DNA of 12,974 bases from Candidatus Micrarchaeia archaeon (GCA_041500405.1 JBGQMB010000025.1:1-12974); one strand, 5' to 3'. Shown: positions 1 through 12,894, counted from the stretch's first letter. Program-made: numbers and translations. The notes: a model not told the origin generated them from the sequence alone.

Positions 1-784
1 CAACCGGAGCCGCCGTCGGCGCCATATTTGCCATCGCTGTCGGTTGCACTGTAATGGGATTTGCCGGAAGGGGTTGCGCCGCCGGCTTCTGCGCCTGCCT
101 TTCCGCCAGCTTCCGCAGGCTGTCTTCGGCAAAGATGGCTTTCCACACGTTGAGCGGGGCCTCCGCGTTTGTTGCTGGGGCTTTTGTTTCAGTAGGCACG
201 TCGTCCTCGCCCCAGAGGTTGCCCCACGGGTTGTTTTTGTCGAAAACCCTTCTTGCCGCAGGGGGCTTGCTAGCCTTTTTCTGCTCGTTTAACAAAGCCA
301 TATATTTGCGCTCATATCTTTTGACAAGCTTCTCGGTTTCCGCGTCATCGGCGCTTATGCTGCGCTTGGCTTTCCTCAGGCTTTCTTTGGGCGCTTCCAC
401 CTTGATTGCAATCTTTGCTGGCACGGGCGTCGGGCCTGCCGTGTCCTTTTCTGCAACAGCAACAGGGGCCGGCTTTTCAGCAGGCACAGGCTTTGCGGCC
501 GGCGCCGGAAGATAGATTATCCTTACGGCCGGCTCTGACGGGGGCTTGAAAATTTCCATCTGCCTGGCCTTGTTCTGCACCCAGTTTGACCACGGGCCGG
601 CCATGCGCCAGCCTATTGTCCCGCAGATGGCAGTTGCGCCGCAGACGGCGCCGATAAGCATAGCCCTTTTCATTGCGGTTTTCCAGGGCTTCTCTGCCTC
701 GTCCCTGGCCCTTTTCATTGCCTTGACTATTCTCTTGTAATCGGCAGAATGAAGCTCCCCGGGATATACTATTCTCTGAGCCAT
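1..784 (-). CDS. Hypothetical membrane-anchored Pro/Ala/Lys-rich protein with the array-type leader; 3' end lies outside the window
   Basis: Absent from the ORF track because it has no stop in the window. Manual translation from ATG 784 is open to the edge: MAQRIVYPGELHSADYKRIVKAMKRARDEAEKPWKTAMKRAMLIGAVCGATAICGTIGWRMAGPW...PAPAAKPVPAEKPAPVAVAEK.... It has a hydrophobic segment near residues 41-60 and a TTTAAAAA box ending 23 nt upstream. Confidence 0.85.
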   Translation of the reverse strand, partial: MAQRIVYPGELHSADYKRIVKAMKRARDEAEKPWKTAMKRAMLIGAVCGATAICGTIGWRMAGPWSNWVQNKARQMEIFKPPSEPAVRIIYLPAPAAKPVPAEKPAPVAVAEKDTAGPTPVPAKIAIKVEAPKESLRKAKRSISADDAETEKLVKRYERKYMALLNEQKKASKPPAARRVFDKNNPWGNLWGEDDVPTETKAPATNAEAPLNVWKAIFAEDSLRKLAERQAQKPAAQPLPANPITVQPTAMANMAPTAAPV

Positions 785-806
785 ACCATTATTTTGGGGC
801 GTACTG

Positions 807-838
807 TTTTTAAACATTCATGTTCATTAAAAAACACA
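807..838 (-). promoter_or_regulatory. Bipartite archaeal-type promoter (TGTG element + TATA box) for the gene starting at 784
   Basis: Minus strand reads TGTGTTTTTTAATGAACATGAATG-TTTAAAAA, ending 23 nt from the ATG. The same architecture occurs at five other sites. Confidence 0.7.
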
Positions 839-859
839 TTAAAATAAGCTGTTTTCCGG

Positions 860-1159
860 CTATTTCCCGACGGCTCCCCGCCCGCCGACGCTTGCGCGGA
901 ACTCCTTATCCGAATCTATCATATAATTTACCCAGGCGTCGTGCATCCTTTTTAGGTTTACTTTCTTGAACTGCCCTGTGCCTGCCAAAACGCCTGCAAG
1001 GACTCCAATTGCCGCAAGCCCGATAACAAGCCTTTTGTTTCTCCTAGCAAAGCCGGTTCTTTCAGATTCGTCTTTTGCCTTCCTCAATATCATGCCGATG
1101 TGCGTTCCGCAATTTCTGCAATTGCCTGGCTTGAGCATAAGGGGCTTTTCAAGCGACAT
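860..1159 (-). CDS. Small (99 aa) leader-only membrane protein, paralogous to the N-terminus of the 5481-6521 ankyrin protein
   Basis: Start reassigned from 1249 to ATG 1159, 4 nt after the upstream stop (GAGTGATATCATG). MSLEKP...GMILRKAKDESERTGFARR...AAIGVLAGVLAG...KKVNLKR aligns with MPIEKP...GMVLRKAKDAIEKTGFAKR...ATIGMLAAFIAG...KDVNLKK. No ankyrin repeats follow. Confidence 0.8.
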   Translation of the reverse strand: MSLEKPLMLKPGNCRNCGTHIGMILRKAKDESERTGFARRNKRLVIGLAAIGVLAGVLAGTGQFKKVNLKRMHDAWVNYMIDSDKEFRASVGGRGAVGK

Positions 1160-1163
1160 GATA

Positions 1164-2765
1164 TCACTCTTTGGCGCCATGCTCTTTAAGGAATTTCGCG
1201 ATTTTTGTATTGTTATAATACTTGGCGTAATAAAGGGCCGTTTTGCCATCTTTATCTCTCGCGTTCACGTCCGCAGGACCCATCCCAAGCACCACCCTGG
1301 CAATCTCCAAATTGTCGCTCTGAACGGCAAAAATCAGGATAGTTGAGCCATCATTATTCTTAGCTTTCACGTCCGCGCCATGTTCAATCAGGAATTTGCA
1401 GGTTTGCATGTGTCTGTTCTCTGCGGCCCACATGAGCGCGGTCCTGCCCTCCTTGTCCTTTGCCTCTATGTCTGCGCCTTTCTCTAGCAGGAAAGCGCAG
1501 GTTTCGGTGCATCCGTTCTCTGCGGCAATCATGAGCGCGGTCATGCCGTAGTAGTCGTCCTTAGCTTCGATGTTTGCTCCTTTTTTGATTAGGAAAGCGC
1601 AAGTTTCAGTGCGGCCTGCAAATGCGGCCTCCATCAGCGCAGTCCAGCCCCAGCCGTTTTTTGCCTCTATGTCTGCGCCTTTTTTGATTAGGAAAGCGCA
1701 GGTTTGCATGTGTCTGTTCTCTGCGGCCCACATGAGCGCGGTCCTGCCGTTCTTGTCCCTTGCATCCATATCCGCGCCTTTATTAACCAGTAGCTTGCAG
1801 GTCTCTAAGTTTCCTATAGATGCAGCCTCCATCAGCGCAGTCATGCCCCAGTCATTCTTTGCCTCAATGTCTGCACCTTTCTCAAGCAAGAATTTGCAGA
1901 TGTCGGTGTATCCGTTCTCTGCGGCCCACATGAGCGCGGTCCTGCCGTCGTAGTCCTTAGCTTCGATGTTTGCGCCTTTTTCAAGCAGTAATGCACATGT
2001 TTGGGTGTGTCCTGCCAGTGCAGCACGTATGAGCGCAGTCCATCCGTAGTAATTATCCTTTGCCTCAATGTCTGCGCCTTTTTTGATTAGGAATGCGCAG
2101 GTTTGAGTGTGTCCGTTATATGCGGCCGACATGAGCGCAGTCCATCCGTAGTTGTCCTTTACCTCGATGTCCGCGCCCTTTTCAAGCAATAAAGCGCAGG
2201 TTTCGGTGCATCCATTCTCTGCGGCCCACCTCAGCGCAGTCTCGCCGAAGATATTCGTTGCCTTGACGTTTGCGCCTTTTTCAATCAGTAATTCGCAGGT
2301 TTGGGCATTTCCCTTCTGTGCGGCCGACATGAGCGCAGTCCATCCGTAGTTGTCCTTTGCATCAATGAGCTCCTTTACGTTTCCGCCCGCCTTTGCATAT
2401 TCTTGTATTATCAGGATGCAGATTTGGGTATTTCCATTCCGTGCGGCCTCCATGAGCGCCGTCCGGCCCAATGTGTTCTTTACCTTGATGTCTGCGCGTC
2501 TTTCAGGCAGTAATTCGCAGGTTTGGGCATTTCCCTTCTGTGCGGCAACAATGGGCGCGGATGCGCTTTCCTGCGAGTAGGCCATCATGTTGGGAGAAAC
2601 AACCGCCAGGCTTGCCGCCATTACGGTTATCGCGGTTTTTGAGCGGAAGAACTTGCACGCCCTTTCAATGCCGTCTTTTGCCTTCCTCAGAACCATGCTT
2701 ATAGGCTTTGCGCTGTCCCTTACGCCGGTTGCAACCCTTGTTCCAAACGTCTTTTCAATTGGCAT
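1164..2765 (-). CDS. Ankyrin-repeat protein (about 13 full + 1 partial repeats) with N-terminal signal/membrane segment
   Basis: Repeated 33-34 aa G-x-TALM-x-AA-xx-G-xxx-TC-xx-L-xx-KGA[DN] units, ending FLKEHGAKE. Start 2765 (MPIEK) is preferred by homology with the gene starting at 6521; ATG 2774 is an alternative. Confidence 0.95.
   Translation of the reverse strand: MPIEKTFGTRVATGVRDSAKPISMVLRKAKDGIERACKFFRSKTAITVMAASLAVVSPNMMAYSQESASAPIVAAQKGNAQTCELLPERRADIKVKNTLGRTALMEAARNGNTQICILIIQEYAKAGGNVKELIDAKDNYGWTALMSAAQKGNAQTCELLIEKGANVKATNIFGETALRWAAENGCTETCALLLEKGADIEVKDNYGWTALMSAAYNGHTQTCAFLIKKGADIEAKDNYYGWTALIRAALAGHTQTCALLLEKGANIEAKDYDGRTALMWAAENGYTDICKFLLEKGADIEAKNDWGMTALMEAASIGNLETCKLLVNKGADMDARDKNGRTALMWAAENRHMQTCAFLIKKGADIEAKNGWGWTALMEAAFAGRTETCAFLIKKGANIEAKDDYYGMTALMIAAENGCTETCAFLLEKGADIEAKDKEGRTALMWAAENRHMQTCKFLIEHGADVKAKNNDGSTILIFAVQSDNLEIARVVLGMGPADVNARDKDGKTALYYAKYYNNTKIAKFLKEHGAKE
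1398..1748. repeat. 51-bp exact direct repeat (1398-1448 and 1698-1748) inside the ankyrin gene
   Basis: gcaggtttgcatgtgtctgttctctgcggcccacatgagcgcggtcctgcc occurs twice, offset by 300 bp, and encodes GRTALMWAAENRHMQTC. Confidence 0.9.
2121..2546. repeat. Two exact direct repeat pairs inside the ankyrin gene: 2121-2160/2319-2358 (40 bp) and 2286-2324/2508-2546 (39 bp)
   Basis: Read directly from the sequence. The pairs encode KDNYGWTALMSAA and AAQKGNAQTCELL respectively. Confidence 0.88.
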
Positions 2766-2770
2766 TTTTA

Positions 2771-4759
2771 TCATTCCTTGGCGCCCTTGGATTTCAGGAA
2801 TTTAATAATGCTCCGTTTGCCGGCCAGGCTGAGCGCCGTATGGCCATCATTATCCTCCGCATTCACATCAGCATATCCTTTAACAAGAAGCCTGACAATC
2901 TCCTCCGCGTCTTCACCGCAGGCATACATAAGCGCCGTAATGCCGCTGCTGTCCCTTACATTTATGTTGACTTTATTGGAAAAAAGGCGGTCTACTGGGC
3001 TCTTTGATGTATCGATTGTTCCAAGAAGGAGTTTTGCTACTCTTAGCCCCCCATTACGAATTGCATGCATCAGCGCCGTTTTGCCATCCTTGTCTATCGC
3101 ATTAATATCCGCGCCCTTTTCTATGAAACGTTTGGCATCGGCTACGCGGTCTTTGGAAGCGGCGATCATCAGCACAGTAATGCCATCTTTATCTTTTGCA
3201 TTCACATCAGCGCCTTTGTCAATAAGCATATCCACGATATTATCATAATTGCCATAATTTGCGCCCGGAGTGGGCATTACATATTCCACAATCCTATACA
3301 TGCACGCATACATCAGCACCGTAATACCATCATTGTCCATTGCGCGCACGTCTGCATTTCTGTCAAGAAGAATCTTGGCAATGCCGGCCTGGCCGTCATG
3401 GCAGGCATACATCAGCGCAGTCTTCAAGTCCTTGTTTTTGGCGTTTACATAAGTGGCTTTCCTGTCAATAAGCAGCCTGGCGATGCTCTCGTGCCGTTTA
3501 GCAATGGCCAGCATCAGCGCCGTCATGCCTTTCTTGTCTTTTGCGTTGAGGTCGGCGCCCTTGTCAATGATGAGTTTGACAAGTTCTGCATCTCCTCTCT
3601 TCACGGCCCATAGGAGCGGCGTCACGCCATTAGTGTCCTTCACATTAACATTGGCGCCTTTTTCAATAAGGAACTTGACCAGTCTGTCGTTATCATTTTT
3701 CATCGCCAGCGAAAGCGGAGTCCAACCGTCCTTGTCCTTCACGTTCACCTTAGCGCCATATTTACCTACTAGTACTTTTGAAAGAATATCCTGTTCTTTA
3801 TTCTTAGAATGTTCAACTGCGTACATGAGCGCCGTCCTGCCGTGATTGTCCCTTAGATTCGCCTTAAGCTGCATGTCAGACCATATCATTGTCAAAGCAG
3901 ATAGATTGTTCCCACTTATCAGGGCATTCATCAGCGTCGTGCGCTTGTCGTCGCCATATTTTATGTTTACATCTGCGCCTTTCTGTATAAGCATACGTAT
4001 AGCATCAAAATTCTCTCCGCATACGGCATAGTCGAGCGCCGTCCTGCCATCCTTGTCTCTTGCATTGAGGTTAGCCCCTTTATCAGCAATCAGCTTGACA
4101 AGGGAAGAATCGCCTTTCTTTACGGCCCACATGAGCGGCGTCCTGCCTTTGCTGGATTTTATATTCACTTTCGCGCCTGCATCAAGAAGGAGCCTGACGA
4201 TTTCAACATTTTTTTGGCCAGCAGCAAACAACAGCGCCGTCCTGCCGCTGCTGTCTTTCTCATTAACATTGGCATGGTTGCCGATAAGCATCCTGACAAT
4301 GTCTGCATTCTCGTGAATTACGGCATACGTCAGCGCCGTAAATCCTTCTTTGTCCTTCGCATTCACATCAGCTCCTTTGTATATCAGGAGCTTGGCTTGA
4401 TCATCCTGTTCACACCAGATCGCACAGCTCAGCGGCGTCCAGCTGTTTCCTTTCCCAGCATCTATGTTTGCGCCGCCTTCTATTAGAGACCTGGTCCTTC
4501 CCAGGTCGCTTTTTCCTACGCTTTCAAAAAGCAGGCTATCCTGCGTGCTGAGCTTTTGCGAAGACGAGTCCTTGTGAGAACAGGACATTATGCCCAAAGC
4601 ACCCGCGGCAAGACCCGCCGCCAGCATGGTTATCGCGGTTCTTGAGCGGAAAAACCTGCGCGTGCTTTCCATGCCTTCTTTTGCCCTTCTGAAAATTTCA
4701 ACGAGCCTTCTGCGGCCGCCACTATCTTCCCTTGGAACATCCAGGCTTTTCAGCGCCAT
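2771..4759 (-). CDS. Ankyrin-repeat protein (about 16 repeats plus N-cap), predicted lipoprotein
   Basis: Repeated G-x-T[AP]L...GA[DN]VN[AV]KD units. The leader MALKSL...FRRAKEG...STRRFFRS is followed by hydrophobic TAITMLAAGLAAGALG and lipobox-like IMS-C. Ends FLKSKGAKE. Confidence 0.95.
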   Translation of the reverse strand: MALKSLDVPREDSGGRRRLVEIFRRAKEGMESTRRFFRSRTAITMLAAGLAAGALGIMSCSHKDSSSQKLSTQDSLLFESVGKSDLGRTRSLIEGGANIDAGKGNSWTPLSCAIWCEQDDQAKLLIYKGADVNAKDKEGFTALTYAVIHENADIVRMLIGNHANVNEKDSSGRTALLFAAGQKNVEIVRLLLDAGAKVNIKSSKGRTPLMWAVKKGDSSLVKLIADKGANLNARDKDGRTALDYAVCGENFDAIRMLIQKGADVNIKYGDDKRTTLMNALISGNNLSALTMIWSDMQLKANLRDNHGRTALMYAVEHSKNKEQDILSKVLVGKYGAKVNVKDKDGWTPLSLAMKNDNDRLVKFLIEKGANVNVKDTNGVTPLLWAVKRGDAELVKLIIDKGADLNAKDKKGMTALMLAIAKRHESIARLLIDRKATYVNAKNKDLKTALMYACHDGQAGIAKILLDRNADVRAMDNDGITVLMYACMYRIVEYVMPTPGANYGNYDNIVDMLIDKGADVNAKDKDGITVLMIAASKDRVADAKRFIEKGADINAIDKDGKTALMHAIRNGGLRVAKLLLGTIDTSKSPVDRLFSNKVNINVRDSSGITALMYACGEDAEEIVRLLVKGYADVNAEDNDGHTALSLAGKRSIIKFLKSKGAKE

Positions 4760-4781
4760 GCCATATTTCCTGCAGGAACAG

Positions 4782-4814
4782 TTTTTAAACCATTATTACT
4801 CATTTAAAAACACA
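4782..4814 (-). promoter_or_regulatory. Bipartite promoter for the 4759-2765-1159 operon
   Basis: Minus strand reads TGTGTTTTTAAATGAGTAATAATGG-TTTAAAAA, ending 23 nt from ATG 4759. Confidence 0.7.
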
Positions 4815-4833
4815 AAAAGCTGTCTATGGCGTT

Positions 4834-5409
4834 TCACTCCTTTGCGCCTGCGGCTTTCAGGAGCTTGACGATGCCGGTTTTTCCGTAAATCATCTCGCCC
4901 AATTCGGCATAATGCAGGACGGCCCTGCCGTTCCTGTCCTTTGCGTTCACGTCCGCGCCGTTGTCAATAAGCAGCCTTGCGATTTCGATGTTGCCTGCCT
5001 TCGCCGCGTCCATGAGCGGGGTTATGCCAGTTGCCTCGTCCCTTGCATTGGGGTCTGCGCCCTTTTCTAGCAGCGATTCAACGTCCGCACAGGTGCCGTT
5101 TTGGGCATGGAAGATGATGTCGTCCGCATATTTTTCCGCATTCGTAGCCTTATAGTTTAGTGGGGCTGCGCTTTTGCCTGCAACAGCGGCCTGCGCTGCA
5201 TTTGGCTTTCCCATCGGGCCCCATACAAATGCCTGCATCGGCACAACTATGCATAATCCAACAATAGCACCTGTAATTAAACCTGTTTTAGTTAGCTTAT
5301 TCCATTCCTGATCATCTGTTATGTTCTTCGCAGCCCTGAATATCATGTTCTTTGGCTTTGTCCTTCCGCCGTTGAGGCTTTTTTTCTGCTTTTCAGATAG
5401 CATAACCAT
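4834..5409 (-). CDS. Short membrane-anchored ankyrin-repeat protein (cap + 2 repeats)
   Basis: LLEKGADPNARD...GITPLMDAAKAGNIEIARLLIDNGADVNAKD. Hydrophobic segment GLITGAIVGLCIVVPMQAFVW. Ends LLKAAGAKE. ATG 5403 fits the promoter spacing better than 5409. Confidence 0.92.
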   Translation of the reverse strand: MVMLSEKQKKSLNGGRTKPKNMIFRAAKNITDDQEWNKLTKTGLITGAIVGLCIVVPMQAFVWGPMGKPNAAQAAVAGKSAAPLNYKATNAEKYADDIIFHAQNGTCADVESLLEKGADPNARDEATGITPLMDAAKAGNIEIARLLIDNGADVNAKDRNGRAVLHYAELGEMIYGKTGIVKLLKAAGAKE

Positions 5410-5426
5410 ATCTTAGTCCCCAACAC

Positions 5427-5458
5427 CTTTTAAACATATCATCTCGCCAATAACCACA
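5427..5458 (-). promoter_or_regulatory. Bipartite promoter for the 4834-5409 gene
   Basis: Minus strand reads TGTGGTTATTGGCGAGATGATATG-TTTAAAAG. TGTG begins exactly 24 nt before the TATA box. Confidence 0.6.
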
Positions 5459-5480
5459 GTGGCTCCGTCTGTGCGGCATC

Positions 5481-6521
5481 TCATTCCTTTGCGCCGAGAG
5501 ACTCAAGGTACTCGATTGCAGCAGGAAGCCCAAACCTTTTGGCATAGCCAAGCGCAGTCATGCCTTCTTTGTCCCTTTTGCTTATGTAATTTTTAACGTC
5601 TCCGCCGGCTTTTTCGTACTTGGACACTAGAAACTCGCAGAATTCTGCAAGCCCAAGTTGTGCCGCATACATGAGCACAGTCATGCCGTATTTGTCCGCT
5701 GCCTCGATGTATCTTTTCAGGTTTCCGCCAGCCTTGGCATATGCGGAGATGAGCGCCTTGTATTCGCTGGTATCGCGGCTGCAAGCCGCATGCATGAGCG
5801 CAGTCTTTCCGTCCTTGTCCGCTGCCTCGATGAGCCCCTTAACATTCCCGCCCTTCTTCGCGTATCTTTCAATGAACAGCGCCCACGTCTTTTCATGGTG
5901 ACCCAGCACAGCTGCCCACATGAGCACAGTCAGGCCGTCATTGTCCCTTGCATTGATTTTTGCCCTTTTTTCAATCAAGAACTTGCAGACGTCATAGCTC
6001 CCGACCCATGCGGCCCTCATGAGCGCAGTCTCGCCATAACCGCCGGTTGCAGTAGCATTCACGTCCGCGCCCTTGCCTACCAGCAGCTTGACAGCTTCGA
6101 CGCTTCCGCCGGCTGCGGCGCATATGAGCGCTGTCCAGCCGTGCTCGTTCCTTGCGTTCGGGTCCGCGCCCTGCCTCAGGAGATTTTCAACGCTCGCGAC
6201 TGTCACGTAGTCCGAGACTGCATCCAAAAGCGCCTTGTTCATGCGCTGCTGTTTTTCGGAGATTTTGGATTTCTTTTCAACGGCGCTTATTTGTTTGGCG
6301 TTTGCCTTTTTCAGATTGACATCCTTTAGGTTTTCGGCGCCTGCAATGAACGCGGCAAGCATGCCTATTGTCGCAACCCTGGCGACGGCATGCCAGCTTC
6401 TTTTTGCAAAACCAGTTTTCTCGATTGCATCTTTTGCCTTCCTCAGAACCATGCCGACAGGCTTTCCGCTGCTGTTTTCGCCGGTTGCAATCTTTGACCC
6501 AAACGGTTTTTCGATTGGCAT
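5481..6521 (-). CDS. Ankyrin-repeat protein (cap + about 6 repeats, three of an extended type) with N-terminal signal/membrane segment
   Basis: GWTALICAA, GETALMRAA, GLTVLMWAA, GKTALMHAA, GMTVLMYAA and GMTALGYA motifs. Leader MPIEKP...LRKAKD. Ends YLESLGAKE. Confidence 0.95.
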   Translation of the reverse strand: MPIEKPFGSKIATGENSSGKPVGMVLRKAKDAIEKTGFAKRSWHAVARVATIGMLAAFIAGAENLKDVNLKKANAKQISAVEKKSKISEKQQRMNKALLDAVSDYVTVASVENLLRQGADPNARNEHGWTALICAAAGGSVEAVKLLVGKGADVNATATGGYGETALMRAAWVGSYDVCKFLIEKRAKINARDNDGLTVLMWAAVLGHHEKTWALFIERYAKKGGNVKGLIEAADKDGKTALMHAACSRDTSEYKALISAYAKAGGNLKRYIEAADKYGMTVLMYAAQLGLAEFCEFLVSKYEKAGGDVKNYISKRDKEGMTALGYAKRFGLPAAIEYLESLGAKE

Positions 6522-6525
6522 ATTA

Positions 6526-7617
6526 TCAGTTCTCTTGGCAGCATAACTTCAAAATCATTTCTCTCTGTTCATTACTGTACTTATTGGAAAACTTAACTTC
6601 CTCTTTTTTCAGAAAATAGTATGTCTTATCGTATCCTTTACTCAATTCAAGTGCAGTCGCGCCAAAATTACCCTCTACGTCTATATATTCTCCAATATTT
6701 CCGCCATACCTGGCAAGTTTTTCAAGCAGCAATTTGCAGATTTCTAAGTTATTTTGCTGAGCGGCATTCATTAATGCAGTCCGGCCACCATCTCCCCAAT
6801 CGTAACTAGTCTTTGCCTCAATGAACTTCCTAACATTTCCGCCATACTTAGCAAGCTTTTCAAGCAGGAATGCGCAGACTTCCGTGTCGCCGTAGGGGGC
6901 AGGCCGCTCGGCCATGCAACCAGGCATCGCTGCGGCATGCATAAGAGCATTCTCGCCATATTTATCCTTTGCTTCAATATATTTTTTTACATTTCCACCT
7001 TTTTCAGCAACTTTTTCAATCAGAACTCTACAGCAATTAATATCTCCTAGAGAATGCATGAGTACAGTGCGTCCAGTTGTATCCCTAGCATACATGTTTG
7101 CGCCATGCTCAATCAAGAATTCACAGGCTTTGGCATCACAAGACTCCATGGCAAGCATAAGCGCGGTGCTACCGTCGCTAGTCTTTGCATCAACCTTGGC
7201 GCCAAGCTTGATAAGGAGACTGCCAACGACGAGGTTTCCGTCCCATCCAATTACACTCTCCATCAATGGAGTCCAGCCCCGCTTGTTCCTGCAGTTCACA
7301 TCTACGCCATACAAAACAATTCCCCTGATTTTTTTCTTATCTCTTTTTTCAACAGCGTCAAAAAGCATGCTATCTACAGTGCTGATCGTGGCAACAGCGG
7401 GTGCTGGTGCTTCCCAGTGCGGTGTATTTTCCTTATGTGAACAGGATATCAGATTCGGCGAAACCACGGCCAAGCTGGTCGCAAGCATCGTCATTGCGGT
7501 TTTTGAGCGCAGGAACTTGCAAGTCCTTTCAATGCCGTCCTTTGCCCTTATGAAACAACCAAGGATACGTCTGTTACCATTTCTGCTTTCTTTTGACACC
7601 AGGCTTTTCAGTGCCAT
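6526..7617 (-). CDS. Ankyrin-repeat protein (cap + about 6 repeats), predicted lipoprotein
   Basis: GWTPLMES, GSTALMLA, GRTVLMHS, GENALMHAA and GRTALMNAA motifs. The leader MALKSL...FIRAKDG is followed by a hydrophobic segment and lipobox-like LIS-C. Confidence 0.93.
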   Translation of the reverse strand: MALKSLVSKESRNGNRRILGCFIRAKDGIERTCKFLRSKTAMTMLATSLAVVSPNLISCSHKENTPHWEAPAPAVATISTVDSMLFDAVEKRDKKKIRGIVLYGVDVNCRNKRGWTPLMESVIGWDGNLVVGSLLIKLGAKVDAKTSDGSTALMLAMESCDAKACEFLIEHGANMYARDTTGRTVLMHSLGDINCCRVLIEKVAEKGGNVKKYIEAKDKYGENALMHAAAMPGCMAERPAPYGDTEVCAFLLEKLAKYGGNVRKFIEAKTSYDWGDGGRTALMNAAQQNNLEICKLLLEKLARYGGNIGEYIDVEGNFGATALELSKGYDKTYYFLKKEEVKFSNKYSNEQREMILKLCCQEN

Positions 7618-7638
7618 ATATCCTTTTCACATAGTTCT

Positions 7639-7670
7639 CTTTTTAACATGCACGCTCGTTTATAAACACA
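7639..7670 (-). promoter_or_regulatory. Bipartite promoter for the 7617-6521 operon
   Basis: Minus strand reads TGTGTTTATAAACGAGCGTGCATG-TTAAAAAG, ending 22 nt from ATG 7617. Confidence 0.62.
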
Positions 7671-7725: not shown

Positions 7726-8217
7726 ATGGCCGACATAAGCCTTGAGATTGTCAAGCTTGCGCCTGCAAACGGGGAAAACATAATCCTGGGCCAGTCGCAC
7801 TTCATTAAAACGGTGGAGGACATTTACGAGGCCATAGTGGAGACCAACCCGGCAATAAAGTTCGGGGTCGCGTTCTGTGAAGCCAGCGCCGACCTTCTCA
7901 TAAGGCACGACGGCAACGACGACGCGATGGCGAAAAAGGCGATAGAAGCCGCAAGGAGAATCGGCGCAGGCCACTCGTTCGTGATATGGATGACAGGGGG
8001 CTGGCCGCTCAACATAATAAACAGGCTCATGGCGGTCTCAGAAGTCGTCAACATATTCGCGGCAACGTCAAACACGCTTGAAGTTATCGTAGCCGAAACG
8101 TCCCAGGGAAGAGGCATAATGGGCGTGATAGACGGCAACAAGCCGGTCGGCGTGGAGACCCCGGCAAAAGCAAAAGAGAGGAAGGCCCTGCTGAGGGGTC
8201 TGGGATACAAAAGGTGA
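7726..8217 (+). CDS. Adenosine-specific kinase family protein (PAE2307/COG1839-like)
   Basis: Family motifs NIILGQSHFIKTVEDIYEA, FGVAFCEAS, GAGHSF and GRGIMGVIDG, C-terminal GYKR, and the typical length of about 163 aa. Confidence 0.93.
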   Translation: MADISLEIVKLAPANGENIILGQSHFIKTVEDIYEAIVETNPAIKFGVAFCEASADLLIRHDGNDDAMAKKAIEAARRIGAGHSFVIWMTGGWPLNIINRLMAVSEVVNIFAATSNTLEVIVAETSQGRGIMGVIDGNKPVGVETPAKAKERKALLRGLGYKR

Positions 8218-8562: not shown

Positions 8563-8961
8563 TCAGCCTGCTTCTTTGTTGCGGTGCGCCCTTAGGAATT
8601 CAGCAGTGCCATCGCGGCCTCCTGCTGTTGCAAGCATGAGCGCAGTCATGTCGTAGTTGTCAATTGCATTGACGTCAGCTTTGTGTTCAAAAAGAAGTTT
8701 GCACATTCCAGTATATCCAGTGTATGCGGCAAGCATGAGCGGGGTTCTTCCGTCGCTGTTCCTTATATTCACGTCCGCCCCGGCATCCAGCAGCCTTTTG
8801 GCGTTTTCAATTTTTCCCTTCTTGGCAAACTCAAGCAGCCTCATGTTCAGGCTCTCCAGCCTTTCTTTATCGGGCATTATGCCCTCAGTTTTCGGCTTGT
8901 TGGCAGCAATGCCGGGCTTTACTGTTGCTTTCCTGCATTTGGGCAGATTTCTTTCCTGCAT
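8563..8961 (-). CDS. Short ankyrin-repeat protein (cap + 2 repeats) with no hydrophobic signal
   Basis: LLDAGADVNIRNSDGRTPLMLAAYTG...ADVNAIDNYDMTALMLA. ATG 8961 is preferred over TTG 8985 because a TTTTAAAT box overlapping the thpR stop ends about 24 nt upstream of it. Confidence 0.9.
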   Translation of the reverse strand: MQERNLPKCRKATVKPGIAANKPKTEGIMPDKERLESLNMRLLEFAKKGKIENAKRLLDAGADVNIRNSDGRTPLMLAAYTGYTGMCKLLFEHKADVNAIDNYDMTALMLATAGGRDGTAEFLRAHRNKEAG

Positions 8962-8986
8962 ATGCCGTTTATGTGCAGGCAACAAT

Positions 8987-9496
8987 TTAAAAGCCGTATT
9001 TTTTGAGAAGTCTGTATTCCGGATTTGGCTTTTTCAGCACGCTTTCATACAGGCAGATGGAGTCGGGCCTGAAAGTCCCGAAGTCGGTTGCACAATATTT
9101 TTCAACAAACGATTTCGCATTGTCCGTTTTTCCCTGGATTCTGGCAACAGTCAGGTGCAATTTTGCCTCCCTGCCTTCCTCAATCCTGAACGCCTTTATC
9201 ATCACGTTGGCGTTCCTTTTCATCCCTGCCCCTTCAACGCCGACCCACGCTATTCTGACAAACTCGGGGTTCGGGAACACGCCCGCGCCTTTCAGCGTAA
9301 CGTCCCCTTTCTCAAACTTCAGGCCGGCCAGAACCTTTTCCGCGTCCTCCTGTTTCATTTCGCCAAGGAACGCAAGCGTAATGTGAAGGTTCTCGCGCGG
9401 AATAATCTTCACGTTCGGGCCCTCAAGCGACTTCGCCGCCTCGCACACCCTGTCCAAAATTCCGTCCGGAATGTCAACTGCGACGAAAAGCCTCAT
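8987..9496 (-). CDS. thpR: RNA 2',3'-cyclic phosphodiesterase (2H phosphoesterase, LigT/ThpR)
   Basis: Starts MRLFVAVDIP, has two HxT motifs (NLHITLAFLGE, LHLTVARI) and C-terminal LYESVL...PEY. Confidence 0.95.
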   Translation of the reverse strand: MRLFVAVDIPDGILDRVCEAAKSLEGPNVKIIPRENLHITLAFLGEMKQEDAEKVLAGLKFEKGDVTLKGAGVFPNPEFVRIAWVGVEGAGMKRNANVMIKAFRIEEGREAKLHLTVARIQGKTDNAKSFVEKYCATDFGTFRPDSICLYESVLKKPNPEYRLLKKYGF

Positions 9497-9629: not shown

Positions 9630-11405
9630 ATGTTCAATGAAAGATTGATGCCCGTTTCAAAACTAAATCCAAGAATAAAGAGATGCTTATCCACACTGCA
9701 GATTTTGGACAGCGCGCCGCTCACCGAAGACACAGTGAAGGCCGCCTATAGGACATTGGCAATGAGATATCATCCTGACAAAAATCCCGGCAACACGGAT
9801 ATCGGGGCAAAATTCAGGGAAGCGACTGATGCATACCATGAAATGAAGAGATTATTTGAAAGCTCAGGCCAAGAAACAATCCAACTTGAAACAGAACCCA
9901 ACATAAAAAGCAGGGACTTGCTAAAAAAAGGATTTTCCTCTGCAGTGGAAAGGCTGTTGAGGGAAAAGGATGAAGCGGATAAAGGGAGGAAAGACGCATC
10001 CATCTATGAAATGCCAAGGGAATATGTGCAAAGGCCATTTTCAGATACGGTGCGTTTGCATATGCAGAAGATAGAAAGGATATTCCTTCTCGAACAGCCT
10101 GCATTGGACAAAAACCAGTCTGTTGACGAAATAGTAATATCCATATTCGGCGTAGAACCGGAAAGCCCTGTTGTTGCGCAAGCGCGCAAAGTTTTTGATG
10201 AAAGCCAAAAATCGAAAAAGGACTTCGTAGATGCGCTATCCCTGGCATACTGGATAACTGAGATGTTCGGGGGCGCGTCACCGCAAAAAGCGCTGGAAAG
10301 AACGGCAAAATTTCTTGAATGCGGCGATAAAGCCCAAATGAAAATGGCAGCGGGCTGCGCATTGGCCTCTCTGGATGCGGACTTGCATGTGATGATGGAA
10401 CCGAAAAAGGAAGGAAAGAGATATTCCATGGCATTTGATGAGCTGTACGGCCTGATTTTCCGCTCAATAAAAACCGACGGAGAAATGGACCAATACGGTT
10501 TATTGATGAAAGAGGCGCAAAAATGCGCCTTGCGTTCCCAAAGACCCCTGCTGTTCAGCGGCAAAAACCACGTCTATGCCGCCAAAATACTGACGAAAGC
10601 GTGCAGGAACAGGAGCATAAGCGAGGCAAGGCTGTTTCTTGACAAGGCCGTTTCCCTTTGCGAAAAGTTATTCTACGATCCTTTTGCAGATAACAGCCTT
10701 GACATGCTGGATGAAAAGATGGCCGCCATGGAAGCCGAAAGGCTGAATTTAGGGCGGACCAGGGGATTCACAGAGCAAGAATTCTTTGACTTGGTGAATC
10801 TTGTCGAAGCGATAAGAAACGACGGCAGCCTGAGTTTCAAGATGAGGCTTCTCACATTCTCCAAATTTATCAATTCATTAAGCGAAACCATACCGAAGGA
10901 TAAAATGTTATATGCAAATACCTTTGTGGATTCCGTCTCCGAAGCCGCCAACGGATATGTTGACGGAAATACGGCGCATATCGTAAATGAATGGAGCAGG
11001 GCATTCAAGAGCCATTTTGGCTCATTCATGCAAAATCCGGAGAGTTTTTGGAGGGCCATGAATGCGATAGGGTGCCTGAGAAAAAACATCGGTAAAAAGA
11101 ATCGCGGCTTCAGGAAACCTTTTTACGTTACCGTGGAGGCTGCCGCATATTGCGGGTCAAGGATAGTGGGCAAAAGCCCGGAAACAAGAAAGATTGAGGA
11201 ACTGCAAAGACTGTGCGACAATTACAGGAACAGCGAATACTTCGTAACCCAAACGAAAAAAGGCAGGCAGACAATCCCGGCAGAAAGCCTCACACCCAAA
11301 GAAAAAAGGATTTACATGGGATTACAAGATATACAGAGGGGCTCTTCAAGAAAAATCAAGACAGAACAAATGAAGGAAATCCTGGATGTTTTCTACGACG
11401 AATGA
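9630..11405 (+). CDS. J-domain (class C DnaJ-like) protein with a large uncharacterised C-terminal region
   Basis: N-terminal VKAAYRTLAMRYHPDKNPG...KFREATDAY with an intact HPD motif. It has no G/F-rich region or CxxCxGxG repeats, so it is not canonical DnaJ. Confidence 0.9.
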   Translation: MFNERLMPVSKLNPRIKRCLSTLQILDSAPLTEDTVKAAYRTLAMRYHPDKNPGNTDIGAKFREATDAYHEMKRLFESSGQETIQLETEPNIKSRDLLKKGFSSAVERLLREKDEADKGRKDASIYEMPREYVQRPFSDTVRLHMQKIERIFLLEQPALDKNQSVDEIVISIFGVEPESPVVAQARKVFDESQKSKKDFVDALSLAYWITEMFGGASPQKALERTAKFLECGDKAQMKMAAGCALASLDADLHVMMEPKKEGKRYSMAFDELYGLIFRSIKTDGEMDQYGLLMKEAQKCALRSQRPLLFSGKNHVYAAKILTKACRNRSISEARLFLDKAVSLCEKLFYDPFADNSLDMLDEKMAAMEAERLNLGRTRGFTEQEFFDLVNLVEAIRNDGSLSFKMRLLTFSKFINSLSETIPKDKMLYANTFVDSVSEAANGYVDGNTAHIVNEWSRAFKSHFGSFMQNPESFWRAMNAIGCLRKNIGKKNRGFRKPFYVTVEAAAYCGSRIVGKSPETRKIEELQRLCDNYRNSEYFVTQTKKGRQTIPAESLTPKEKRIYMGLQDIQRGSSRKIKTEQMKEILDVFYDE

Positions 11406-11409
11406 ATGG

Positions 11410-12870
11410 TCATTTCATTGAGGAAACCAGGTTTTCCAGCCTTTTTATCCCACCCTGCAGCATCAGTGCCAGTTTGGAGTCCAAATCCGCGGTATCCAGC
11501 CCCAATTGTGCCAGCATGCCCTTGGCCCTGGACAGAAGCAAAACCTGTTTTATGTCCTCCGGAGGGGATGTCACAATCAATCCCGTGTACGTTGCATGGT
11601 CTTCAAGCATTGTGGTCAGGCCAACGACAAATTGGCTTTCCCCCTTCGTTAAGGGAACAAGCGCTGTTGTGCCGGTGGTTTGGATATGCCCCAGCAGGTA
11701 TCTGCTTATTAGCTCCTTCAGCGGTCCGGATACGTCCTCACGGGCCAATTTCACGCGGGAAACGACTTCATCAATGTGCTCCAGGGCCTTTGTTGCAATC
11801 TCGTGCTCTTTCACAACATTATGCAGAATCCTTTTTTCCAGTGAAGCAAAATACCTCTTGCTTCTTGCGCGCAGCTCAATCACATTTGTCCTGTTCTCTC
11901 TGTCAAGCTCGACAAACCTGAAAGGCGCGCTCTTTGTGCGGTTCACAAAAGGTTCATAGCAAAGGTAAAACAGCCTGCTTTGCATCTCATTAAGCGTTAT
12001 CCTATCTCCTGGATTGTGTTTCTTGATCTCTGATATCATCTCCGCAATCTCGGGTATCTGGGCTTTGAACACACGGTCGCTGATAATGCTCTGGTGCGCA
12101 GGCTCGCAGCCTGCGGCAGATGACCCGAACCATTTTCTTAGGCGGGGATTGGATGAGACAAGCCTTGAATATCTGACCCATTTGTTGTTGTGATGAGCCG
12201 ATATGTACCTGCTTATCTGCTCAAAATAAAATGAATTGCTCTCGTTTGTCCTTTCAACCAAGGCATTGACGCTTTCCCCCGAGTATCTTTTCGAGATAGA
12301 AGCCAGAATGTCCCTGTGCATTTTTGAGTCATGGTTTGGCTCTTTCTGCAAAAGGCCGACGAACTGCTCCATTTCGGCACTGCGCAGCAGTCTGCCCGCA
12401 ATGTCAAGTATCGATTCCAGGAGGGCCGCCTTTATCTCAGAATGGTTTAGCCTGTCTGCCCCTTCGCCAAGCGTTTTCTGTATTTGGCTGGATTCCAAAT
12501 CCATGTAATGTAGGTACAAAACCGCAAATGGAACCACAGTGGGTGCAAGATTCATGTTTACAAAAATCATGTCGCCATATTTGTATCCTATGCCCGAACC
12601 GTCGCACTGGCTGTCCAGGAATGGTTTCGAACAGAAAACGTACTTTAGGTTCTCTCCGGCTATCTCTACGCTGAATTTATGGTTTTTTCTGTAATAATTT
12701 TCAATGTCGCTTAGCGGATCAAGACATAGTGTTTGGCATAGCGATAATGTCGGACCTCTGGTACCAGAGCCATCAGGGGCTATGATATCATTTGCCCTAA
12801 ATGCCCTTTTAGTATCAGGGCTAGGTTTTCCATTTGCATTTTTTGGCATGTCTCCTTTTTCAGTAGCCAT
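11410..12870 (-). CDS. Hypothetical protein (486 aa)
   Basis: Long ORF convergent with the J-domain gene (4 nt gap). ATG 12870 is preferred over TTG 12891 because the TATA box ends 25 nt upstream of it. No family recognised. Confidence 0.85.
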   Translation of the reverse strand: MATEKGDMPKNANGKPSPDTKRAFRANDIIAPDGSGTRGPTLSLCQTLCLDPLSDIENYYRKNHKFSVEIAGENLKYVFCSKPFLDSQCDGSGIGYKYGDMIFVNMNLAPTVVPFAVLYLHYMDLESSQIQKTLGEGADRLNHSEIKAALLESILDIAGRLLRSAEMEQFVGLLQKEPNHDSKMHRDILASISKRYSGESVNALVERTNESNSFYFEQISRYISAHHNNKWVRYSRLVSSNPRLRKWFGSSAAGCEPAHQSIISDRVFKAQIPEIAEMISEIKKHNPGDRITLNEMQSRLFYLCYEPFVNRTKSAPFRFVELDRENRTNVIELRARSKRYFASLEKRILHNVVKEHEIATKALEHIDEVVSRVKLAREDVSGPLKELISRYLLGHIQTTGTTALVPLTKGESQFVVGLTTMLEDHATYTGLIVTSPPEDIKQVLLLSRAKGMLAQLGLDTADLDSKLALMLQGGIKRLENLVSSMK

Positions 12871-12894
12871 ATACACTACCCTTGTACACAACGC

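Follow-up and report, generated by a model that had tools for sequence, protein, structure and literature searches.

Expansions of ankyrin-repeat genes are a classic mark of host-associated bacteria. A membrane-anchored ankyrin protein that faces the periplasm is represented by AnkB of Pseudomonas aeruginosa, encoded by a single gene in a catalase operon, while conserved extensions placed ahead of an ordinary hydrophobic signal core are found on large repeat proteins as the extended signal peptide region (ESPR) of autotransporters and as the YSIRK-type signals. A 2014 survey (Jernigan and Bordenstein, PMC3932732) reports an ankyrin protein from only 15 of 133 archaeal strains, and the Undinarchaeota paper (PMC7414124) presents that lineage as having no ankyrin genes; no title or abstract in the literature that we searched describes an ankyrin expansion in DPANN archaea, whose host recognition and attachment are largely unknown. 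Here we analyze a stretch of 12,974 nucleotides (nt), henceforth the window, which is one whole contig (C25; GCA_041500405.1 JBGQMB010000025.1:1-12974) of the genome of a Candidatus Micrarchaeia archaeon (G000; 916,473 bases in 60 contigs, estimated 86% complete), and in particular an array of seven genes with a common leader and a common promoter module, five of which encode ankyrin repeats. We interpret this array as a probable species-specific tandem expansion, which would have arisen by capture of a promoter plus leader and by duplication of a cassette, and whose ankyrin domains would be displayed at the cell surface by Sec-dependent insertion with the N-terminus in and the C-terminus out; to this joint interpretation we assign a probability of roughly 0.55.

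The small-subunit rRNA of G000 reaches 1413 bits against the archaeal model, compared with 1068 bits against the bacterial one, and the kinase-family protein encoded at 7726 is 82% identical to its counterpart at locus L012 of genome G001, also a Candidatus Micrarchaeia archaeon. The organism is a Micrarchaeia (DPANN) archaeon, probably a symbiotic one. For comparison, G001 (loci L012 and L006) and G002 represent two other species of the same genus, G008 another genus of the same family, and G020 and G030 another family of the same order.

All seven genes are located on the minus strand (window 2–7617) in four transcription units, each headed by the common promoter module, and all their frames are intact, with lengths of up to 662 codons. 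Genes are named here by their lower coordinate in the window. Unit A comprises gene 6526 (6526–7617), which encodes an ankyrin protein of 363 amino acids (aa) with a MALKSL-type leader ending in the lipobox L-I-S-C, and gene 5481 (5481–6521), which encodes an ankyrin protein of 346 aa with a MPIEK-type leader. Unit B begins with gene 2771 (2771–4759; 662 aa, 14–16 repeats detected), whose MALKSL-type leader ends in the lipobox-like I-M-S-C, continues with gene 1164 (1164–2774, with the start at 2765 or 2774; 533–536 aa, about 14 repeats, mosaic leader) and ends with gene 860 (860–1159), a small leader-only protein of 99 aa that consists of a basic N-terminal part, a glycine-rich transmembrane helix and a short tail. 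The start of gene 860 was placed at 1159 because the protein then begins with MSLEKP, in agreement with the MPIEK starts of genes 1164 and 5481, and because this start lies 4 nt past the upstream stop codon; a longer open reading frame (ORF; 860–1249) would overlap its neighbor. Unit C is formed by gene 4834 (4834–5409), a short ankyrin protein of 191 aa with 2–3 repeats, whose leader and upstream element look, by eye, nearest to those of the gene that forms the fourth unit, referred to below as the resident gene (2–817). The latter is cut by the contig end and encodes a bitopic membrane protein in which the leader module is accompanied by a Pro/Ala-rich linker and which matches no Pfam family. 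Its true start is probably the ATG at 784 (MAQRIV), since an ATG follows the TATA box by 22 nt in both species compared; P0004, the full-length 418-aa form of the resident protein from a near-identical strain, begins at this residue, and the apparent start MFKNSTP is the TATA box read as codons (ATGTTTAAAAAC).

Pfam families of the ankyrin repeat, a tandem helix-loop-helix unit of 33 residues (PF00023 or PF12796), match five of the seven genes above the curated cut-offs (E-values from 1e-113 to 4e-16), and a hidden Markov model (HMM) constructed from the window's own repeats counts 14, 14–16, 2, 5–7 and 5–7 of them in these five genes. Genes 2–817 and 860–1159 match no Pfam family (the best family match of gene 860 has an E-value of only 0.14), and no non-ankyrin Pfam family was identified at E ≤ 0.01 in any of the seven array proteins. 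Structure prediction with AlphaFold2 gave models too poor for a fold search, both for gene 6526 (single sequence, mean predicted local distance difference test score of 38.4) and for the resident protein (3-row alignment, 41.0), and ESM Atlas returned no usable match for P0004 and a best score of 0.78 for gene 860. A preliminary description of this DNA, made from the sequence alone, had proposed seven same-strand genes in four units with a common leader, hydrophobic segment and promoter, with ankyrin repeats on five of them, in a DPANN-like archaeon; the anatomy is confirmed, and both the rRNA scores and the 916-kb genome agree with the guess about the organism.

The leaders of all seven proteins start with a part of 39–43 residues with a net charge of +5 to +8, characterized by the core h-h-[LF]-R-[KR]-A-K-[DE]-x-x-E (the R-x-A-K-D/E motif) and followed by an uncharged stretch of 19–26 residues, which begins at residue 40–44 and corresponds to one hydrophobic helix. 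Where the hydrophobic cores of genes 6526 and 2771 end in Cys, that of gene 1164 ends in M-M-A-Y; in gene 860 and the resident gene the helix is rich in small residues spaced at intervals of four. An HMM of the leader matches exactly the seven array genes among 9063 six-frame ORFs of G000 (E-values from 3e-21 to 5e-17, next best 0.25); several of the sub-threshold matches (E 0.25–4.3) fall in ankyrin ORFs, and an HMM of seven other ankyrin N-termini gave no match to the window leaders at E ≤ 20. A HMMER pass over 1.84 billion representative proteins returned nine at E ≤ 1e-3, namely three proteins of the window, two orthologs of the resident protein (P0004 and P0005), two homologs of gene 860 (P0006, 95 aa and 52% identical; P0007, 100 aa and 48% identical), P0008, a homolog of gene 4834 that has the same type of leader and no ankyrin repeats, and P0009, which was rejected as a spurious repeat protein. 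A word-based protein search with residues 1–80 of gene 5481 revealed nothing but that gene's own protein, and a pattern scan of metagenome contigs yielded 94 pattern matches, none of which was confirmed. In 41 related genomes (G000 included) the leader was detected only in G000 and G001, and within the family in 2 of 19 genomes. To judge from these searches, the leader is a tiny genus-level module that is not tied to ankyrin cargo.

The promoter module has the form TGTG-N9-GAR-N5-RTG(N0-1)TTWAAAA and occurs four times in G000, always in the window and once per unit (minus-strand positions 7670, 5458, 4814 and 838); the reversed genome, used as a control, contains no occurrence. The pattern matches, all on the minus strand, span 7640–7670 for unit A, 5428–5458 for unit C, 4783–4814 for unit B and 807–838 for the resident gene, where the upstream element is joined to the TATA-like ATGTTTAAAAA. 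The module was found once in G001, ahead of the ortholog of the resident gene, and not at all in G002; a looser version precedes the leader-ankyrin gene of G001 and the resident-gene ortholog of G002. The promoter of unit C and the region upstream of the resident gene of G001 exhibit 82% identity over 33 nt, within surrounding DNA that cannot be aligned. The arrangement of leader and promoter is real and well beyond chance.

The two parts of the module differ in their distribution. Of 849 crude genes of G000, 286 have a TATA-like hexamer between −38 and −17 relative to the start codon, as opposed to 56 of 847 at an upstream control position and 16 of 847 inside genes; the TATA box of the array is therefore the generic one of this genome, and its placement suggests that G000 makes leaderless mRNAs. 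The upstream element, which as a dedicated operator would be expected ahead of unrelated genes elsewhere, was seen ahead of none in G000 or G001. Promoter element and leader are both confined to the duplicates, to the resident gene as their source and to its orthologs in close relatives, an outcome that the preliminary description itself had named as speaking against its proposal of a regulon. Neither that wider regulon nor the second proposal based on the same elements, a private export pathway with its own signal, is supported.

Comparison of gene order places the array in an otherwise conserved neighborhood. In G001 the genes for ThpR, a small ORF, the kinase and the resident gene follow one another with no ankyrin gene between them, and G002 exhibits the same order with one additional, unrelated ORF of 109 codons, so that the kinase is one gene away from the resident gene. 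In the window, six array genes lie between the kinase and the resident gene, and an extra ankyrin gene lies between the small ORF and ThpR. Both congeners are therefore without the array at this site. In G008, which belongs to another ankyrin-rich genus of the family, locus L099 (G008:C1:543000-557000) carries ankyrin genes with a different common N-terminus (MEVKDKEKE...) within about 4–6 kb of the same kinase gene.

The array genes are paralogs, and their units carry copies of one promoter. The three junctions internal to the operons are alike, with TGA followed by 4–6 nt and ATG-(C/T)C(A/G)-(A/C)T(T/C)-GAA, and duplication therefore appears to have acted on a whole cassette, the pair of a MALKSL-type and a MPIEK-type ankyrin gene (6526+5481 and 2771+1164+860). 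In gene 1164 the leader clearly combines the two types as a mosaic: over five 45-column windows, which extend from the start codon as far as the RKAKD codons, it shares 71–84% of its nucleotides with gene 5481 (32–38 of 44–45 positions), and in the next two windows it is 82–89% identical to genes 6526 and 2771 (37–40 of 45) as against 11–18 of 45 to gene 5481. This switch bears out the leader swapping noticed in the preliminary description. G001 possesses one leader-ankyrin gene, the first of a three-gene ankyrin operon at another locus; its product is 39% identical over 317 aa to gene 5481, its nearest relative in the window, and the alignment begins at residue 1, so the fusion of leader and ankyrin repeats is older than the split of the species. 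According to our interpretation, the 5' end of the resident gene, comprising the promoter module, the basic segment of about 40 residues and the hydrophobic helix, would have been copied and joined to the ankyrin repeats of the genus; the two-gene cassette, with the lipobox MALKSL-type ankyrin gene followed by the MPIEK-type one, would have been duplicated next, and parts of the leaders would have recombined later.

The predicted membrane topology follows from the anatomy of the leader. In all seven proteins the N-terminal part with its +5 to +8 charge contrasts with −1 to +3 in the 15 residues past the helix, and with a single helix and such a basic N-part the positive-inside rule gives the N-in/C-out orientation for each of them. 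The basic part would stay in the cytoplasm and the helix would enter the Sec translocon (SecY is present in G000), which would leave the ankyrin solenoid on the outer face of the membrane; genes 6526 and 2771 would encode lipobox lipoproteins, and the remaining five products would be signal-anchored type II proteins. The lipobox pattern [LVI][ASTVI][GAS]C is matched strictly by gene 6526, while gene 2771 has Met at position −2, outside the strict set; elsewhere in G000 the strict pattern identifies lipobox signals in 12 of 851 crude genes. Tat export, which would call for the motif S/T-R-R-x-F-L-K and for TatC, was considered and rejected, since RR precedes F-F only in gene 2771 (T-R-R-F-F) and a search of the genome, at 86% completeness, gave no match to TatC. 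The anchored ankyrins may serve to bind proteins at the cell surface or at the contact with a host, a role suggested by what ankyrin repeats do in general; like export and topology, it is predicted from sequence features. The effector or decoy functions offered in the preliminary description are among the claims that found no direct support.

Several features weigh against surface display and against the proposed history. The ankyrin domains contain 0–0.46 N-x-S/T sequons per 100 residues, where the medians in G000 are 0.16 for cytoplasm-like proteins (n=542) and 1.57 for proteins with a signal-like N-terminus (n=53); their isoelectric points range from 5.8 to 9.3 and Cys makes up as much as 4.2% of residues; the N-region of 39–43 residues compares with 0–10 in most signal peptides of G000; the lipobox Cys is present in only two of the seven proteins; and a gain in G000, rather than a loss in both congeners, is suggested by two relatives only. 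It is possible, if on balance unlikely, that the ankyrin domains are cytoplasmic, held at the membrane's inner face by a helix that is only a tether, or with the segment not inserted at all, and that they serve as scaffolds for membrane-associated complexes, as the leaderless ankyrins may do. Sequon density, isoelectric point and Cys content match this alternative, as they resemble those of the cytoplasm-like and not of the signal-bearing proteins of G000. It also agrees with the Kyte-Doolittle profiles (17-residue windows) of the 54 ankyrin ORFs that lie outside the array, 51 of which have no segment above 1.4 ahead of the first repeat (the exceptions being C37, with a classical lipobox signal, C11_13795 and C12_17939), and with two of the array's own hydrophobic stretches being only moderate (1.4–1.5 over 19 residues). 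What argues for the outside location is the positive-inside rule applied to one helix and one basic N-part in all seven proteins, together with the lipobox directly past the hydrophobic region in two of them and the architecture of the resident protein, which carries the same module and in which the Pro/Ala-rich spacer precedes a C-terminal part predicted to be rich in β-structure (by a low-confidence model), like an outward-facing stalk.

Two further explanations concern the dynamics of the array and not its topology. In the preliminary description the array was viewed as a repertoire of exported ankyrin effectors or decoys that is jointly regulated, actively diversifies itself and has a regulon and an export signal of its own, and there is indeed a family-specific promoter module on all four units, partly conserved ahead of the leader-ankyrin gene of G001, as well as a mosaic leader, an ankyrin expansion in all three species of the genus, and internal duplications of 99 nt and about 300 nt, which confirm that description's remark on repeat shuffling. 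Moreover, a 66-nt patch in the helix-coding part of gene 860 (window 985–1052) is replaced by a diverged version of the same length in contigs of three of four sediment-metagenome runs, with identical DNA around it. However, array pieces of 0.9–2.8 kb from these four runs, which belong to four studies and may sample one population, differ from the window by 0–3 letters, and the direct repeats are mostly 60–80% identical (at best 95% over 43 nt); the repeat copies are old. Nor is the array a target of the complete diversity-generating retroelement (DGR) found on contig C18 (11149–13344), as the template repeat of the latter has no match in C25 at E ≤ 1. With the leader present also on proteins without ankyrin repeats (the resident protein, gene 860 and P0006–P0008), with promoter and leader restricted to the duplicates and their source, and with defense-system matches at the level of the repeats only, such a repertoire is very unlikely, and active self-diversification is not supported. 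At the opposite end, the array could be neutral genomic churn, a set of recently duplicated, decaying paralogs without a specific role; this would agree with its absence from the site in both congeners and with the tiny size of the leader family, in which three of the nine matches are the window's own and one is spurious. Decay is nevertheless hard to reconcile with seven intact frames of up to 662 codons, with paralogs that at 60–80% nucleotide identity still keep the geometry of the leader to within a few residues, and with a promoter element conserved between species inside otherwise unalignable DNA, so that we consider this explanation extremely improbable.

A few observations on variation and on the DGR deserve mention in their own right. 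The Pro/Ala-rich linker of the resident gene (window 93–407) varies: one contig, from run X1, differs at 23 letters and has 15 nt inserted after position 160, and P0004 also differs from the window in the linker. In the short contigs the repeats of gene 1164 are broken into fragments, and joints within 1300–2400 were not interpreted as repeat-number variants because their sides are short at 85% likeness and the contigs only 223–376 nt long. No RNA run was among the seven runs found. The DGR on C18 consists of a target ORF (11149–11949) with a variable repeat at 11706–11792, a template repeat at 12154–12240 and a reverse transcriptase at 12241–13344, and 20 of 20 mismatches between template and variable repeats are at template adenines; paralogs of the target are present on contigs C3 and C39. 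A role in anti-phage defense was also considered and rejected, as the PADLOC matches (PDC-M72A, MzaA, Ankyrin) cover the repeat region only, and PADLOC identified no family in five non-ankyrin proteins scanned (four from the window and P0004).

The array is a small part of a larger gene family. G000 has 59 ankyrin ORFs, which amount to 40.2 kb or 4.4% of the genome, and 48 of them lie within 1.5 kb of another; the family is strongly expanded in this genome. The number of Ank_2 matches is 95 in G000, 113 in G001, 93 in G002, 73 in G008, 42 in G020 and 25 in G030, and 0–19 in the other 35 genomes searched. As a separate observation, 34 of the 59 ankyrin ORFs, none of them in the array, share a conserved C-terminal tail about 30 residues long, F..F.[ED]C plus 2–5 residues, with three residues past the Cys in 19 cases and two in 11, which resembles a CaaX box (for example C2:26394-27056, C8:21614-22321, C19:19171-19998 and C36:2396-3106, and also L012:1417-1899). 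An HMM of this tail identifies 35 ORFs in G000, of which 34 are ankyrin ORFs, and two ORFs in the loci of G001 that we examined; G000 has a match to the ICMT family at C57:1786-2037 and no Rce1-like match was found in it. Many ankyrin genes, among them most of the leaderless ones, are also preceded by a strongly conserved promoter or 5' region, (c)tgaTTTTTAAcccctttgccgcacaataaagcc-ATG, which when read through gives FLTPLPHNKAM (for example C2:27103-27606, C19:20002-20748 and window 8962–8995), and more than 10 contigs of G000 contain a related element about 50 nt long. One might speculate that the array is the membrane-displayed arm of an arsenal of about 59 ankyrin genes, shared by all three species of the genus and used against or with a host, in which leader and private promoter would constitute a dedicated, co-regulated targeting module and the 34 genes with CaaX-like tails the other arm. 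We regard this scheme as quite unlikely; if true, it would represent the first description of an effector-like repertoire of proteins in an archaeal symbiont.

The remainder of the window is occupied by the genes on the other side of the array. The gene of the adenosine-specific-kinase family (PF04008; 7726–8217, plus strand) is the conserved flank that was used as a synteny anchor. The extra ankyrin gene, a leaderless one, is located at 8563–8985 (minus strand), with the small conserved ORF on one side and ThpR on the other; its likely start is at 8961 (MQERN), and no counterpart was found at that place in G001 and G002. The region 9630–12891 encodes a protein of 591 residues, in which an N-terminal J-domain (PF00226, E 1.7e-10) is all that was recognized, and another of 493 residues without a family match; neither has a counterpart in the syntenic locus L012 of G001.

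Taken at its predicted value, the array supplies concrete candidates for surface binding proteins in a genus whose genomes, about 1 Mb in size, contain dozens of ankyrin genes. The window would also illustrate a stepwise gain of a membrane anchor and a promoter by copying of the 5' end of a neighboring gene, and hence a clean example of how new gene architectures may arise by promoter-plus-leader capture.

Each of the known systems resembles the array in some respects and differs in others. A DGR is present in the same genome, but the array is not its target. As in AnkB, the array proteins have an N-terminal hydrophobic anchor followed by ankyrin repeats that face away from the cytoplasm (by prediction in the case of the array), but AnkB is encoded by a single gene and the array is a set of paralogs, and the two are alike by description only. 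The leader resembles the ESPR and YSIRK-type signals in being a conserved extension ahead of a hydrophobic core on repeat proteins; it differs in being archaeal, in exhibiting no sequence relationship to them according to Pfam, and in being present also on a 99-residue protein without cargo. The lipobox lipoproteins of bacteria and haloarchaea share with the array a positive n-region and an h-region followed, in genes 6526 and 2771, by L-I-S-C and I-M-S-C, and G000 has many classical lipobox N-termini besides; but the n-region of these two genes is 39–40 residues long and conserved in sequence, and the Cys is missing in five of the seven proteins. Finally, the ankyrin expansions of Wolbachia, Legionella, Coxiella and Orientia, as portrayed in PMC3932732, are similar in that a presumably host-dependent organism with a small genome has many paralogs, which are often arranged in tandem, and in the duplication and reshuffling of repeats within genes. 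In the present case, however, the organism is an archaeon and the array proteins possess an N-terminal membrane anchor. The likeness is one of gene-family behavior only.

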